A stretch of 64,000 nt of DNA from Eledone cirrhosa (taxonomy: Eukaryota): contig OZ024763.1 of NCBI GenBank assembly GCA_964016885.1, positions 11,098,001-11,162,000 on the forward strand, written 5' to 3'. Below the pieces are notes generated by a model that saw nothing but the letters and a program-made list of their open reading frames with translations, was not told where the DNA came from and made no database searches. Both the position numbers and the translations under genes were made by a program. Shown piece by piece: positions 22,615-61,100 of the stretch (positions within the stretch are counted from its first letter, which is position 1; each line of letters opens with the position of its first letter).

Positions 22615-22824
22615 AACGAAGGAAATGTGGTAAGGAACCAGATGGACCATAACGCACCAAAGTACTCAATACTTAGGGTAGTAGAGTGGGTAATAGGAAC
22701 GAGTAGGACCCCGACGGCTGAGCTCAAGCCGTTTCGACGGCTAATTCTGAACTCATTCTGGACTCACTCCAGAATTAGCCGTCGAAACGGCTTGAGCTCA
22801 GCCGTCGGGTTCCTACTCGTTCCT
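22615..22824. mobile_element. Family C fold-back element (3' half of an HHR in both arms)
   Basis: GAAA-cggc-ttgagctca-gccg-TC-ggggtc; copies at 26630-26796, 52109-52320, 57243-57438, 58447-58601 and 58933-59066 (single arm), all flanked by (TA)n. Confidence 0.8.
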
Positions 22825-22847
22825 ATATATATATATATATATATGAA

Positions 22848-22963
22848 GGCGTGTGGCTGAGTGGTTAGAGAATTGGATTCGCAATCGTAAGTTTGTGAGT
22901 TCGATTCCTGGACCAGGCGATGCGTTATGTCCTTGAGCAAGACACTTTATTTCACGTTGCTCC
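22848..22963 (+). mobile_element. tRNA-derived SINE (second family)
   Basis: A box tggctgagtgg, B box gttcgattcc, then gtccttgagcaagacactt; longer copy at ~25680-25970. Confidence 0.75.
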
Positions 22964-23117
22964 TTCTACCTGGAGTTGCGACCGATAGATAGTATTAGCA
23001 ATTGGGAAGACCAACGGAAACATTGTTCCCTCGGTCCGATTTGACGAAAGTCGATCGTTCCTTTTATATATATATATATATATATATATATATATATATA
23101 ATTATATATGTATATAT

Positions 23118-23434
23118 ATCAGTATATAGGGAGAAGTACAGATAGAGAAATGTGTTCAATCATAGAGGATCAAAAACCACCAGAGTGATGAACATATTAA
23201 CTACGGAAGGAATGGTGAATACAAATTAATAAAAAAAATATATCAAAGTCTACTAACCATCCAATTATAACTATATCACCAGGACACGCTATAAAAAGTG
23301 AAGAATATATATTGTAGATATTCTTTTAATTTATTTATTCACCATTCCATCTGTAGTTAATATGTCCGTCACTGTGGTGGGTTTTGATCCCCTATCATTG
23401 AACAGATATCTCTGTGTAATTCTCTCTATATTGA
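23118..23434. repeat. Diverged inverted repeat (~125-bp arms)
   Basis: gttcaatcatagaggatcaaaaaccacc..catattaactac..ggaatggtgaata versus tattcaccattcc..gtagttaatatg..ggtgggttttgatcccctatcattgaac. Confidence 0.75.
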
Positions 23435-23937
23435 TTTATAAAGAGCCTGGAATCTATTCCTTGAGCTTATTAAATTATAGTGGATAAATGTGAGTCTTTA
23501 ACTCCGGTTTTTAATTTGATATATATATATATATATATGTATGTATATATATATATATATATATATATGTATGTATGTATATATATATATATATATATAT
23601 ATGTATGTATGTATGTATGTATGTATGTATGTATGTATATATATTATAGAGAGAGAGAAATGGCTGACTGAATACACACGTGCTTTTTCTCACTCTATTT
23701 ATATATTTAATCTTTTATTTCTCATTTTTTCATTTGATGAAAGATTCTTTTCCTACTATATCAAGCATTCAACTCATATATTTCTTTATTGCGCTGTGTT
23801 GTTTCCGTTTACTTTTTACATCCACACACACACACACACACACACACACACACACACACACACACACACACACACACACACACATATATATAGTGACGAA
23901 ACATAAGTCAATTGCATGAACTCATAATCCTTTATTT

Positions 23938-57195: not shown

Positions 57196-57719
57196 ATATA
57201 TATATATATATATATATATATATATATATATATATATATATAAAAAAGAAAATGTATGACCCCGACGGCAGAGCTCAAGCCGTTTCGACGGGTATTTCTG
57301 GACTAAAATAGCCGTCGAAACGGCTTGAGGTCTGCCGTCGGGGTCATACATTTTCCTATTACCCACTCTACTATCCTAAGTATTGAGTACTCTGGTGTGT
57401 TATGGTCCATCTGGCTCCTTACCACAACTCCTTCGTTATATATATATATATATATATATATATATATATATATATATTAACGGAGCCATAGACTCTCGTT
57501 ATTCCCTGTCAATAATGTGCTCAAAGGAAAAGGAATCCTGAGCTCTTTAAAATACAATATGTTGAAAAGGTAACACACTAGAGAGAGATAGTGCGCCATC
57601 AATAAAACAGGGAAAACCACCAGTGTATGGAGTCTATAACCTATGGAAGGCAGGGTAGACACACAATAATAAAAAATATAAATTAAAATGTATATACGCA
57701 CCTCTATAACTATATAACA

Positions 57720-57800
57720 CACGCGTACAAATCCAAAGAGATCTGTTTCGCCAGGAAGTTGTTGACTGAAATGGAATAGCCTATGGTTCATCAGCGCGTG
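57720..57800 (-). ncRNA. Canonical type I hammerhead with full helix III
   Basis: Minus strand: cacgcg-CTGATGA-acca...tggc-GAAA-cagatc(tctttg)gatttg-TA-cgcgtg; within element 57478-57977 with inverted arm; terminus also at 63120-63212. Confidence 0.85.
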
Positions 57801-58063
57801 CTAGACTTTACATTCCAGACAAGTCTAAGAGAATCTAAAGCGACCGTTCAGATAGACGCGGCAGAGAGATGTCACAGTGTGTTTAGGGCAAGTGTGCTCA
57901 ACCGGTGGTTTTCCCTGTTTTATTGATGGCACACTATCTCTCTTTAGTGTGTTACCATTTCAACATATTGTATTTTATATATATATATATATATATATAT
58001 ATATATATATATATATATATACAATATATTAATAAATGGAAACTATATTTATAAAACCATATT

Positions 58064-58129
58064 TATTTTATTATACATATTTCAAGGGCAACCAAGGCAA
58101 ATTATAGTGCGCTTTCATCAGATAAAATA
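58064..58129 (-). ncRNA. Minimal type I hammerhead (family A)
   Basis: Minus strand: tattttat-CTGATGA-aagcgcac...gttgccctt-GAAA-tatgta-TA-ataaaata; inverted half copy at 58216-58300. Confidence 0.8.
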
Positions 58130-61100
58130 CAGATTTGTTTTATAAATAAATATTGACATACCCGGAAAATAAAGACAACCTTAACGGTTGGAGCTTCCTG
58201 GATAGTGGAGATAATACCATAATTTGCCTTGGTGGCCCTTGAAATATGTATAATAAAATAAATATGGTTTTATAAATATAGTTTCCATTTATTAATATAT
58301 TGTGTATTTACTCCACTAAACTGTTGAGTGCTTTATATCAGTTATAAAAATGTTTAAGCTTGTTGAATCCCAACAAATTAAATATAACCTCTGCATATAT
58401 ATATATATATATATATATATATATATATATATATATATATATATATAACGAAGGAAGTGTGGTAAGATACCAGGGGGACCATAACGCACCAGAGTACTCA
58501 ATACTTAGGGTAGTAGAGTAGGTAATAGGGAAATGTTTAACTCCGACGGCAGAGCTCAAGCCCAAACGGCTTGACCTCTGCCGTCGGGGTTAAACATTTT
58601 CATATATATATATATATATATATAATTATAGTAGGAGAATAAACAACCAAATTCTTGAAAAAATATTTATTTGTTTACAAATAAATATTTATTCAAGAAT
58701 TTGATTGTTTATTCTGCTAGAATATATTTTTATATTTACGCTCTGTCTCTATACGTATTGCATAGCTTATAACTCTCTGGTCTGCTTTCACTGCACACTT
58801 CTCTTGCATCTTATACGTATTGAGTACACTGTCCTCTTCCCTGCTGGCTTATGATTCTCACATCTCACAAACTAATCTCTAATCTCTCCTTCTTGATTGG
58901 ATTGTACACTTATATTTAATATATATATATATAGAAATAGCCGTCGAAACGTCTTGAGCTCTGCCGTCGGGGTCATACTTTTTCCTATTTCCCACTCTAC
59001 TACCCTAAGTATTGAGTACTCTGGTGCGATATGGTCCATCTGGTTCCTTACCACAATTCCTTTGTTATATATATATATATATATATATATATATATATAT
59101 ATATATATACATATATATATATATATATATATATATATATATATACATATATATATATATATACATATATATATATATATATATATATATACATATATAT
59201 ATATATATATATATATATACATATATATATATATATATATATATACATATATATATATATATATACATATATATATATATATATATATATATACATATAT
59301 ATATATATATATATATATATACATATATATATATATATATACATACATATATATATATACATACATATATATATATATATACATACATATATATATATAT
59401 ATACATACATATATATATATATATACATACATATATATATACATATATATATATATACTAGCGTCCAAAACGTTAAGACCCTCTTCCTGCTATTTCAAGC
59501 GTTAACCTAATATATTCCTACCGACTGTGTTGTTATTTCTGTTTACCTTTTACACACACACACACACACACACACACACACACACACACACACACACACA
59601 CACACACACACACACACACACACACATATATATTTGTTTTGCTAGGTTTTTGATGTGAAAACGTGTGTTGAACATATATTTTTTACTTTGGGAGTGCTAT
59701 GCTGCCCCCCAAAACCTGTTGAGTTTCATTTTGGTTTATTATTATAATTGTCCGTTGGTTAGTTTAACAACCGGTTGGTTGTTTAGTTGTTGTCAAAGCC
59801 CTTTCGTCACACATTCTGTGGCCTCTGCAGCGAATACTTTTGTTACGCCTGTGTCTCTTCTATGTTCTGTTTTACACCATTTAGTCTTTGTGAGCCAAGT
59901 AGGGAGCTAGATGTTTTGATTGACCTCGGTCAATTTTAACGATGAGTCTTTTAGTTGTCCGATGAACGGAATAACCTTCTCATGAAGTTAGCGTGTAAGT
60001 GACTGAGCACTCCAAAGTCCTTTGAATCACAGGTACAGTCCATCTGACAGGCTTCCACACAGTTTCTGTTTACCCAGTTTCACTCACAAGACATGTATCG
60101 ACCCAAGGCTATTGTGAATGACACTTGCCCAAGATGTCACGCAGAGAGATCGAACATGAGACCTTATAACTTCAAAACGAACCTCTTCACCATATGGTCA
60201 TCTTGGGTTACACGGTCTATGAATAGGTGTAGTAGTAGTGGTAGTAGTAGTAGTAGTAGTAGTAGGAGGAGGAGGGTGGAATAGCTTCGTTTTAACATCC
60301 TCTTACCGTTTAGCAGAAACTGTCTTAAAACAAGTTTGTTAATTCACATGTTTATAGTCTCTTTACTGATGAACAGATTGTTATGAAAAATAGCAGTATT
60401 AGTGTAAAACCTTTAATATTTTATGTGATGCAGTCATGGTGTTGTTTTCTACTTTTCTAGAATGTTTTACTAATGAGGTTTCATGGTTTGTTTTGTTGAA
60501 ATTCAAATATTTGCAGTATCTTTACTGGTGGACAAATTATTGAGATATCTAACAGTAAACTAAAGACGTTAATATTCAAAGTGATGCTGTCATGGTGTTG
60601 TTTTCTTAATTTAAATATTTATAATATCTCTACTGGTGGACAGATTGTTGTGAAACTTACAGTAGTTAAGTAATGTACATAGCAGCTTTCATTTTCTTAT
60701 TCCTAAATCCCTGAATATTGAATAATTTATTCACTTTCCTCGCGTGTGTGTGTGTGGAGGGGGGGGGGCGTGTACAATTGTACACATCTGGTTACATAAA
60801 CACACACACACTCATGCAAACACACACGCTTATATATATATATATATATATATATATATATATATATATATATATATATTTATGTATATATATATATAGG
60901 CACACAAGCTCATACACACACACACACACATATACACATACACACATATATATATATATACACACACACATATATATATGCATATATATATATAGGCACA
61001 CAAGCTCATACATACACACACACATATATATATATATATATATATACATACACACACACATATATATGTATATATATAGGTACACAATCTCACGCACAGG

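Follow-up and report, generated by a model that had tools for sequence, protein, structure and literature searches.

Canonical EN+ PLE insertions are described in PMC8557442 and PMC3846280 as head-to-head inverted arms, the inverted pLTR being 5′-truncated and an optional tail being present on one arm only, with a hammerhead ribozyme in the pLTR, (TA)n targets without readable duplications, and palindromes at the junctions. The pLTRs of PLEs are reported to contain an internal promoter with an Inr (PMC2377424; PMC3846280). How the tandem and inverted structures of PLEs are formed is named as unresolved in PMC8557442, and self-priming on an antisense template has been proposed for the inverted repeats in PMC3846280. 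For the Poseidon element PAc of Anolis, which has AT-rich targets, the tail is bounded by two internal start sites that are fixed in position 3′ of the hammerhead, both target strands are cleaved and extended in vitro, and the length of the product is set by the template's 5′ end; although both strands are extended, no RNA ends were found at the cut site (PMC11167929). Lastly, non-LTR retrozymes, which are thought to depend on PLEs, are short, non-coding elements related to type I hammerheads, and are described as tandem repeats with complete ribozymes and circular RNA (PMC7229834; 10.64898/2026.07.22.740005).

Family C, found in the window (the whole stretch of 64 kb of Eledone cirrhosa DNA analysed here), shares with the canonical insertions the inverted arms, the one-arm tail, the (TA)n targets and the junction palindromes, together with the 3′ half of a hammerhead. 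It differs from them, as far as the cited papers describe them, in having no ORF between the arms and a whole insertion of 130-215 nt, in carrying half a ribozyme only, in having a tail of about 79 nt instead of 30-40 nt, and in that its 5′ ends pile up at one intra-ribozyme site, whereas canonical 5′ ends vary. No description of such a fixed intra-ribozyme 5′ end was found in the text of the PLE papers cited here, the figures or supplements of which may show genomic 5′ ends. The two fixed start sites 3′ of the hammerhead and the AT-rich targets are shared with PAc. Family C was rejected as a non-LTR retrozyme because its copies are dispersed and inverted, lack a complete hammerhead and are not tandem units. 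The copies are short non-coding PLE end fragments set in (TA)n, and the architecture of inverted ends plus tail is known and ordinary for PLEs rather than a new class of element. The PLE origin and the hammerhead 3′ half proposed in the original prediction are both supported.

Sequence comparison confirmed all six predicted copies between 22615 and 59066, and no seventh C fragment was found by BLAST with three arms as queries (the next best matches having E-values of 0.11-0.7). The copies are listed below, with arm ends counted from the G of GAAA (minus, upstream; plus, downstream).

22615-22826, copy C1 as a whole
22615-22753, minus strand, C1 long arm, 5′ end at -18, 3′ end fixed at (TA)n, tail of 98 nt
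22735, GAAA of the hammerhead 3′ half in the C1 long arm, predicted cut after 22713
22754-22767, C1 junction of 14 nt, including a slipped repeat of the long-arm end by direct reading
22768-22826, plus strand, C1 short arm, from -16 to about 20 nt beyond the cut site, then (TA)n
26630-26797, copy C2 as a whole
26630-26737, minus strand, C2 long arm of a divergent sub-lineage, 5′ end at +15 (loop III)
26737-26797, plus strand, C2 short arm, 5′ end at -17, the two arms having a single base in common
52109-52323, copy C3 as a whole
52109-52246, minus strand, C3 long arm, 5′ end at -17
52247-52262, C3 junction of 16 nt, including a 12-nt templated copy of the short-arm start by direct reading
52263-52323, plus strand, C3 short arm, 5′ end at -14
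57243-57437, copy C4 as a whole
57306-57437, plus strand, C4 long arm, 5′ end at -11
57243-57304, minus strand, C4 short arm, 5′ end at -18, the preceding T residues of which may be native or derived from the long arm
58447-58602, copy C5 as a whole
58447-58562, minus strand, C5 long arm, 5′ end in stem III, at +5
58562-58602, plus strand, C5 short arm, 5′ end at -1 or +1
58933-59066, plus strand, C6, a single long arm with its 5′ end at -13 directly on (TA)n and no inverted arm

The 3′ ends of these arms are fixed. All six long arms share one (TA)n-anchored start, 98 nt past the hammerhead cut site, and all five short arms end about 19 nt past it. The common outer sequence aac(a/g)aagga, which had been ascribed to every copy, is present in five of the six, C2 having aacaaagac. 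(TA)n flanks both sides of all copies, and target duplications are unreadable. As predicted, five copies switch to an inverted short arm, with the tail on one arm only, and their five junctions all differ; C6 joins (TA)n directly. About four sub-lineages can be distinguished among the six copies in the window, and every short arm is nearest to its own long arm or to one of the same sub-lineage. With respect to private variants shared within a copy, the nearest or tied-nearest partner is clear in three of the five pairs, with one tie and one miss. Such sharing is also predicted by snap-back. Outside the microsatellites the flanks are unrelated, except that C2 and C5 each adjoin the tail end of a family A copy (a 19-nt match). 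The copies are independent insertions, and they are stereotyped and inverted, as had been proposed.

All 11 C arm ends fall inside 40 nt around GAAA, and eight of them lie at -11 to -18, upstream of the predicted 3′ strand of helix II; these ends are spread over 8 nt with no single shared end base. Clustering of this kind had a P-value of about 1e-5 per copy set in simulations under a constant-hazard null, and of 4e-9 per arm for a 9-nt window chosen post hoc, so that a uniform distribution of breakpoints is rejected. The view that all copies break inside the hammerhead thus holds as regards proximity to GAAA, but the breaks are not spread through the ribozyme; likewise, not every arm reaches the gccgtc-GAAA half, since the long arms of C2 and C5 stop short of it. 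The CTGANGA half is indeed never retained: a motif scan found the core preceding none of the 11 arms, and neither inspection by eye nor scanning found it in the C tail, as a type II topology with the core downstream of the cut would require. Judged by their sequences, none of the 11 arms having a CUGANGA core, monomers of the inserted copies are unable to cleave themselves in cis. At a relaxed threshold, Rfam gave 466 matches, the best 150 of which were all microsatellite or hairpin look-alikes and included no hammerhead family. The main stop lies in a predicted loop, beyond predicted helices I and III and the 3′ strand of helix II. Native upstream loop sequence, which snap-back at helix II would retain, is present in none of the five junctions. 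In three of the five pairs the short arm holds upstream sequence that is missing from the long arm, and three of the five are symmetric fold-backs.

Family C was also found in sequencing contigs and reads: 19,577 and 20,788 contigs matched in two runs of one sample, 40 in a second organism, and 24,292 of 12.5 million RAD reads. These counts show only that the family is abundant and not restricted to one species label, and copy number was not taken from summed contig depth. Exact-pattern scans of metagenome, viral and prokaryotic genome collections gave 0 matches to the C motif. Loose ends of the C2 type, supported by 93 and 95 contigs (X1 and X2) with an agreement of 0.45-0.48, continue 10 nt past 22743, to -18, and then by plurality into (TA)n, and a second cluster of loose ends lies at 22753 (111 and 112 contigs). 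In the genome-wide reads, two C sub-lineages end at -18. A minority of contigs read on into a common native upstream sequence, for which the X1 plurality consensus agrees with one contig of another organism at 25 of 30 letters; longer C templates thus exist. CTGANGA was not found in this 30-nt consensus, and a complete C ribozyme was never observed. Fifteen of 22 joints were listed, three of which are skips. In all 12 strand-switch joints listed, one side lies at 22743-22753 and the other at 22655-22716, and in six of them the long arm stops before the start of the short arm at 22693, which means that neither arm was copied from the other. Symmetric fold-backs are absent among the joints listed, unlike in the window, and this list is therefore not a census. 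Two further signals were set aside. The drop in depth at 22753 does not prove an end, as the reference is non-native beyond this position, and the 7235 read ends that peak at 22746 in the RAD run fall on an AATT site, so that this peak appears to be a restriction artefact and not a breakpoint.

The explanation that we prefer, with a probability of roughly 0.55 for the whole model, is that two fixed start sites are primed, that one cDNA is extended up to the RNA's 5′ terminus, and that the cDNAs are joined end to end. A PLE reverse transcriptase-endonuclease, probably of the Neptune type, would insert family C into (TA)n by nicking both target strands and priming cDNA twice on the element RNA, at two fixed internal sites. 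These would lie 3′ of the hammerhead cut site, one at 98 nt and the other at about 19 nt, with the PLE tail between them. One cDNA would usually extend as far as the RNA's 5′ end, which would be located inside loop II, 18 nt upstream of GAAA, and the second would stop at the same end or anywhere earlier. Head-to-head joining of their 3′ ends would follow, the joints having 0-2 bases in common or short templated insertions. That priming takes place twice is the part we regard as most probable, and run-off at the RNA 5′ end is likely as well. For the -18 end to be the start of transcription, at an initiator-like AGT, the chances appear about even, this being the most likely origin of the RNA end as read from the sequence. 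The shared break point thus looks more like an RNA start located inside the ribozyme than like a stall in copying, and CTGANGA would be missing because the usual template lacks the core, not because the enzyme fails on the ribozyme. Overlapping C arms require either two templates or the re-reading of one.

The neighbouring families had been said to behave like family C. The relevant insertions are as follows.

57996-58394, family A pair, the short-end arm crossing a complete hammerhead (core at 58121) and ending at the fixed 5′ point 58206, the long-end arm starting in helix II at about 58216
22135-22388, family A pair with non-overlapping arms, the short-end arm reaching the fixed 5′ end at 22322, followed by a tail-only arm at 22323-22388
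54636-54850, family E pair with its fold at helix II, the stem being helix II-like and 15 bp long
39931-40262, family D insertion, the long arm starting at GAAA (39964) behind a 34-nt inverted piece
57548-57898, minus strand, family K arm with a complete hammerhead (core at 57794) and a long stem III

For each of families E, A and D, the likeness is confined to part of the copies. The E pair indeed folds at helix II, but the other E copy retains CTGACGA at 12707; the A arm at 58216 does start in helix II, but its partner crosses the whole ribozyme; and the D arm does start at GAAA, but the D arms at 11818-12252 and 33617-34040 span the whole motif. Overall, a complete ribozyme is entered by 21 non-C arms and crossed by 14 of them, most of which end at fixed, initiator-like 5′ points. 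In family A, seven arms end no more than about 5 nt from ACTATCC, 63-93 nt upstream of the core; in family B, four of four arms end at (A)GTAT, 22 nt upstream; and in family D, two arms end at TATTCC, 136-137 nt upstream. The initiator reading of these starts is post hoc, A.N.T being found at 7% of sites. The arms of a second A pair, at 26345-26545, are likewise non-overlapping. In L1 twin priming, the second target strand primes a second cDNA, which gives rise to an inverted 5′ part. The A pair at 22135-22388 has this twin-priming geometry. The second priming site of L1 is variable and its arms are not duplicates of each other, whereas in family C the site is fixed and the arms often overlap.

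The original prediction held that reverse transcription stalls or snaps back at the structured ribozyme. As considered here, the enzyme would halt on a hammerhead that is folded or bound by protein, and the cDNA would snap back at helix II or III, giving the inverted arm. The confinement of all C arm ends to the 40 nt around GAAA would fit this, as would the templated inserts at the C1 and C3 junctions, which show local self-priming. Elsewhere stalling has some support: the ribozyme or its edge holds 7 of 14 premature non-C stops, compared with a 19% share of the traversed length, a modest excess (P of about 0.01-0.02, tallied by hand), the E pair folds on its helix II-like stem, and the starts of the D arms at 12365 and 13046 are at the helix I edge, 6-7 nt 3′ of the cut. 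However, the main C stop is reached after the paired strands have been crossed, no native loop is kept at the junctions, two thirds of the non-C arms that enter a complete ribozyme (14/21) traverse it, and snap-back cannot yield non-overlapping arms. The retained C RNA, moreover, folds no better than shuffles (z of -0.46 to 0.97, the missing 5′ half being excluded). For family C we therefore consider this reading unlikely. The first reading was borne out in its observations only in part and in its interpretation only in part.

Fairly improbable, too, is a model with a single cDNA, which would extend to the RNA 5′ end, prime itself there and be copied back as far as the short-end site, an idea akin to the self-priming set out in PMC3846280. 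Its geometry, a long arm reaching beyond the short arm with a small loop, is found in C1 and C3 and also in B 13869-14112 and A 49639-49898, and private variants common to both arms and the identical 59-nt arms of the U6-joined copy at 10091-10281 agree with it. Unequal arms would have to reflect later deletion at the centre of the palindrome, namely one-sided deletions in C2, C4 and C5 and the disappearance of the whole overlap in both non-overlapping A pairs and in the six listed joints, and the fixed short end would need a separate cause. Later deletion at a palindrome centre could imitate unequal arms.

The -18 end could also be an RNA processing site, either a host nuclease cut in loop II or a splice acceptor with a tiny first exon. 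The upstream consensus ends in an acceptor-like TTTAG, immediately after the AG of which the C1 short arm begins, a second pyrimidine-rich CAG/G lies about 37 nt upstream of GAAA, and the 5′ end of helix I is where the Penelope intron of D. virilis terminates (PMC4209133). On the other hand, the AG is kept in the C1 long arm, the C4 short arm and the C2-type consensus, the copies share no upstream exon, and PLE copies are known to retain introns (PMC4209133), which makes processing improbable.

It is less probable still that the C motif is not, or is no longer, half of a functional hammerhead, its resemblance arising from a short internal repeat, AGCCGTC, which is present on both sides of GAAACGGCT. 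The core was found neither in the window copies nor in the native consensus that continues upstream for 30 nt. In C1 and C4, the minimum-energy fold is an inactive form in which the 5′ strand of stem III is paired with the upstream repeat, and no compensatory stem III change is seen among the six copies. Nevertheless, the C half motif occupies the position of the complete motifs in families A, B and E: its cut site lies 98 nt from the long end (98 in B, about 103 in E) and 46 nt from GAGYRCT, a motif that families A, B, C and E have 21-27 nt 3′ of the short end. It also resembles the complete K ribozyme, which is similar in loop II, has TCAGTC with an A at -18 and equals C1, C3 and C4 at 10-12 of 18 bases; similar half motifs that lack the core and have no relation to these families are present about 10 times in 128 kb.

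A single amplified fold-back master, MITE-like or spread by segmental amplification, would suit the very high copy number and the fixed outer ends, but is rejected as highly improbable because the five junctions differ and one copy has no inversion, the copy ends are asymmetric, the short arms are closest to long arms of their own among about four sub-lineages, and the flanks are unrelated beyond the microsatellites, bar the 19-nt family A match of C2 and C5.

The value of these insertions is mechanistic, as both the formation of PLE inverted repeats and hammerhead cutting in vivo are at stake. With many short independent insertions of several families, junction counts can separate the PLE models: double priming is favoured where the arms do not overlap, the position of fixed 5′ ends marks the RNA start, and arms ending at the site of cutting, as in family D and the U6-joined copy, would point to ribozyme cleavage in vivo. 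Rather tentatively, family C may be a very abundant PLE-dependent short element the RNA of which starts at an initiator in loop II of its own hammerhead, so that the 5′ ribozyme copy would be a non-functional half and cleavage would be possible in a downstream copy alone. Together with those of A, B, D and the U6-joined copy, its 5′ ends might then record PLE RNA ends (promoter start and ribozyme cut site), the inverted repeats arising by double priming at two fixed sites, with in vivo cleavage in some families.

One locus in the window bears on the mobilising protein.

49899-51030, plus strand, broken 3′ half of a PLE ORF with a YVDD motif, a Cys-rich linker and a GIY-YIG-type endonuclease

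This remnant matches a protein named for Octopus vulgaris at 62%, and its Cys-rich linker before the endonuclease is of the Neptune type, PAc being a Poseidon element. The element is a candidate for the type of mobiliser of family C. None of the PLE ORF remnants in the window is joined to a C end, and Pfam gave no match in either of the two remnants. Among 168 candidate metagenome loci, two were confirmed as PLE relatives. One of the metagenome loci, L001, has no inverted arm and carries a minimal hammerhead just 3′ of the ORF, followed by (TA)n.

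The insertions of family C, six short end copies of Penelope-like elements (PLEs), are real and PLE-derived, and the window holds no further fragment of this family. Their 5' ends, numbered in the ribozyme sense from the G of GAAA (position 0), are as follows.

5' ends of the long and inverted short arms of the family C copies
C1: long arm −18, short arm −16
C2: long arm +15, short arm −17
C3: long arm −17, short arm −14
C4: long arm −11, short arm −18
C5: long arm +5, short arm −1
C6: long arm −13

As stated in the original prediction, all six copies share a (TA)n-anchored long-arm end, which is located 98 nt downstream of the GUC where cleavage is predicted, and five of them switch to an inverted arm through different linkers, while C6 consists of a single arm. 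The short arms likewise have a constant outer end, which abuts (TA)n some 19 nt downstream of the cut site. The CTGANGA half, said never to be retained, was indeed absent from all 11 arms in a motif scan. The predicted non-uniformity of the breakpoints was likewise found: the 5' ends of 8 of the 11 arms fall within one 8-nt stretch, and the furthest end of five of the six copies lies in one 7-nt window (P of about 1e-5 in a simulation under a constant stop rate). No two of the five junctions are alike; those of C1 and C3 contain inserts of 14 and 16 nt that are slipped or templated copies of neighbouring sequence, and those of C2, C4 and C5 have 0-2 shared bases. Between each short arm and its own long arm there are 1, 3, 3, 1 and 3 differences in 24 positions, compared with 2-11 for the long arms of other copies, which indicates about four sub-lineages and independent insertions, again as proposed. 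One amplified master as the source of the family is excluded.

The simplest account of family C is double priming, followed by run-off and end joining. The PLE protein would nick both (TA)n strands, two priming events would occur at two fixed internal sites, one cDNA would extend to the 5' end of the RNA, and the two cDNA ends would be joined via microhomology or templated inserts. In an in vitro study, a PLE protein cleaved and extended both strands, reverse transcription started at two internal sites bounding the tail (the stretch between two fixed 3' ends), 5'-shortened templates gave shorter products, and a dimer was predicted (PMC11167929). Family C shares its inverted truncated arms, its tail and its (TA)n target with standard PLEs, for which earlier reports describe inverted, truncated terminal repeats (pLTRs) that carry a tail, insertion into (TA)n and palindromes at the junction (PMC8557442; PMC3846280; PMC8969392). 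Dual minimal hammerheads on opposite strands, 100-700 bp apart, were also known earlier (PMC4209133). In the literature searched, with subscription papers largely outside it, we found neither a description of a fixed 5' end inside a ribozyme nor double priming as the origin of PLE inversions. The family C pattern offers a testable handle on PLE integration.

Four sequencing runs were aligned to the C1 long arm (22615-22775) at 80% likeness; 23 runs are listed under the same species label, none of those recorded as RNA. The matches comprised about 20,000 contigs from each of two runs that share a sample, 24,292 reads from a RAD run and 40 contigs of a second organism. Among the rows listed (518 more exist), the short end is confirmed as fixed by loose ends at 22693 and, for the C2 type, at 22705. 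C2-type loose ends also start at 22743 and run 10 letters on to −18 and then, by plurality, into (TA)n; another cluster of loose ends sits at 22753 (−18). Of 22 joints, 15 were listed, among them 12 strand-switch joints, all with one side at 22743-22753. The opposite side lies at 22655-22687, before the short-arm start, in 6 of these 12, at 22699-22700 in 4 (possibly C2-type alignment breaks) and at 22712-22716, the cut site, in 2. In the first six, the short arm contains sequence missing from the long arm and is therefore not a fold-back copy. Symmetric fold-backs do not appear among the listed joints, so that the listing is not a census. Two family A pairs (22135-22388 and 26345-26545) show the same pattern, with non-overlapping arms. 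Beyond 22753 the alignment reference is non-native sequence. Against a strict −18 end, the sequence behind the plurality loose end at 22753 in one of the two whole-genome contig runs matches one second-organism contig in 25 of 30 letters, which suggests that a minority of copies, roughly a quarter as estimated from the agreement value, extends into shared native sequence. This native upstream sequence, which is absent from all five junctions in the window, is similar to loop II of family K, includes a GGCTA with the potential to base-pair with helix II on its 3' strand, and has no CTGANGA within 48 nt of GAAA. Its consensus also shows, about 37 nt upstream of GAAA, a pyrimidine-rich CAG/G that would interrupt helix II on its 5' strand.

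A relaxed scan found 16 complete hammerhead motifs in the window. By hand tally, 21 of 28 non-C arms reach a ribozyme and 14 of those cross all of it. The ends of seven family A arms lie at most about 5 nt from ACTATCC and 63-93 nt upstream of the core; in family B, all four arms end 22 nt upstream, at (A)GTAT, and in family D two end 136-137 nt upstream, at TATTCC; families K and E have one whole-ribozyme-crossing arm each, so that no fixed point is demonstrable for them. Together, these numbers indicate that read-through of these ribozymes is the enzyme's usual behaviour and that fixed 5' ends are general in the window. The starts in A, B and D and the AGT at −18 in C resemble initiator elements, a post hoc reading since A.N.T is present at 7% of sites. 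Family K has a TCAGTC whose A is at −18; such a pattern is present at 0.09% of sites. The K arm itself, though, starts further upstream. We infer that the −18 end of family C is a promoter start; two reports describe an internal promoter in the Penelope pLTR (PMC2377424) and an Inr-like motif in rotifer pLTRs (PMC3846280). It is also possible that the −18 end is an RNA processing site or a splice acceptor, in favour of which a D. virilis intron is described as ending at helix I (PMC4209133).

For the symmetric copies, snap-back of a single cDNA with a later deletion is possible as well; local self-priming does occur, as seen in the C1 and C3 inserts and in an 11-nt fold-back at 9372-9400. The stall or snap-back at the ribozyme originally put forward for family C is the less likely explanation, because a helix stall predicts ends on the 3' side of that helix and the main stop lies in the loop, past three predicted paired elements (helix I, stem III and the helix II 3' strand), because helix II snap-back predicts that the native loop is kept and all five junctions in the window lack this loop, and because in C2, C4 and C5 the short arm extends further upstream than the long arm. 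Outside family C, 7 of 14 premature stops lie in or at the edge of a ribozyme, compared with 19% of the traversed length (P 0.008, or 0.02 with the E pair counted once; arm lengths hand-estimated), which gives modest support to a ribozyme effect there. The observation as a whole was partly confirmed, and the proposed likeness of other families holds only in part.

The family C motif is probably half a hammerhead. The distance from cut site to long end is 98 nt in C, 98 nt in B and about 103 nt in E, and the B and E motifs are complete; families A, B, C and E share a GAGYRCT motif 21-27 nt downstream of the short end; and upstream of GAAA, the complete family K hammerhead (57794, long stem III) equals three C copies at 10-12 of 18 bases and C2 at 8 of 18. 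Against this view, a family C core was never observed, stem III has no compensatory change among the C copies, and the retained RNA favours an inactive hairpin, with a fold that is no better than those of shuffled sequences. In view of the CAG/G in the upstream consensus, an intron within the ribozyme may account for the missing core.

Several other structures were observed. The inverted family K pair (57548-57977) has the same 3' end site in both arms, and its complete hammerhead spans 38 nt from core to GAAA. At 12365 and 13046, the starts of two family D arms lie on the helix I edge, 6-7 nt downstream of where cutting is predicted, which would reflect either a stall or the copying of an RNA already cleaved. 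Three more complete type I hammerheads, two of them with a long stem III, lie at 14310-14392 (−), 10422-10503 (+) and 23938-23993 (−), and each is the only one of its kind in the window. An inverted pair with central (TA)n (13292-13524, tail-to-tail, arms 97% identical) has no hammerhead that we could find, and a near-perfect 236-nt palindrome with (TA)n on one side (54900-55135) has no canonical core in the expected direction. The 3' half of a U6 snRNA, which scores 40.2 bits in Rfam and so falls under the gathering score of 44, is enclosed at 10091-10281 by inverted arms of 59 nt that are identical to each other and lie between (TA)n tracts. In a weak alignment at this one locus, the arms align with the post-cleavage sequence of family A and the join to the U6 U-tail is no more than 1 nt from the homologous cut site. 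This is possibly a retrocopy of U6 ligated to the ribozyme 5'-OH product, or a template switch; RtcB-made U6/L1 chimeras, as described in PMC6789731, are a parallel for such ligation. A related older palindrome (58625-58725) folds a few bases from the U6-join site, near the presumed cut site.

The window has a G+C content of 36% and abundant microsatellites and repeats. Its PLE ORF remnants are:

49899-51030: YVDD motif, Cys-rich linker and GIY-YIG-type domain; 62% identity to a protein named for Octopus vulgaris by one source, which makes an octopus the probable host
56557-57063 (−) and 1850-2160 (+): GIY-YIG-type, of two different kinds

A family A arm at 49639-51365 forms a fold-back at the family A 5' end, continues for about 60 nt and then enters a PLE ORF at its YVDD motif; this ORF runs on to a 3' UTR that contains a hammerhead-like motif (51323), and then to (TA)n. 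This is possibly a template switch between two families, which would hint that this ORF type mobilises family A. A PLE locus from a metagenome (L001), with 45% identity to the protein used as query, carries a minimal hammerhead (1673-1790) about 35 nt past the stop codon and terminates in (TA)n. Lastly, a broken non-LTR (LINE) element with endonuclease and reverse transcriptase (Pfam RVT_1) lies at 4962-7900 (−), and two dispersed SINE-like families, one tRNA-like by eye, are found at 22846-22960, 25673-25765, 17191-17371, 25422-25563 and 39121-39293.
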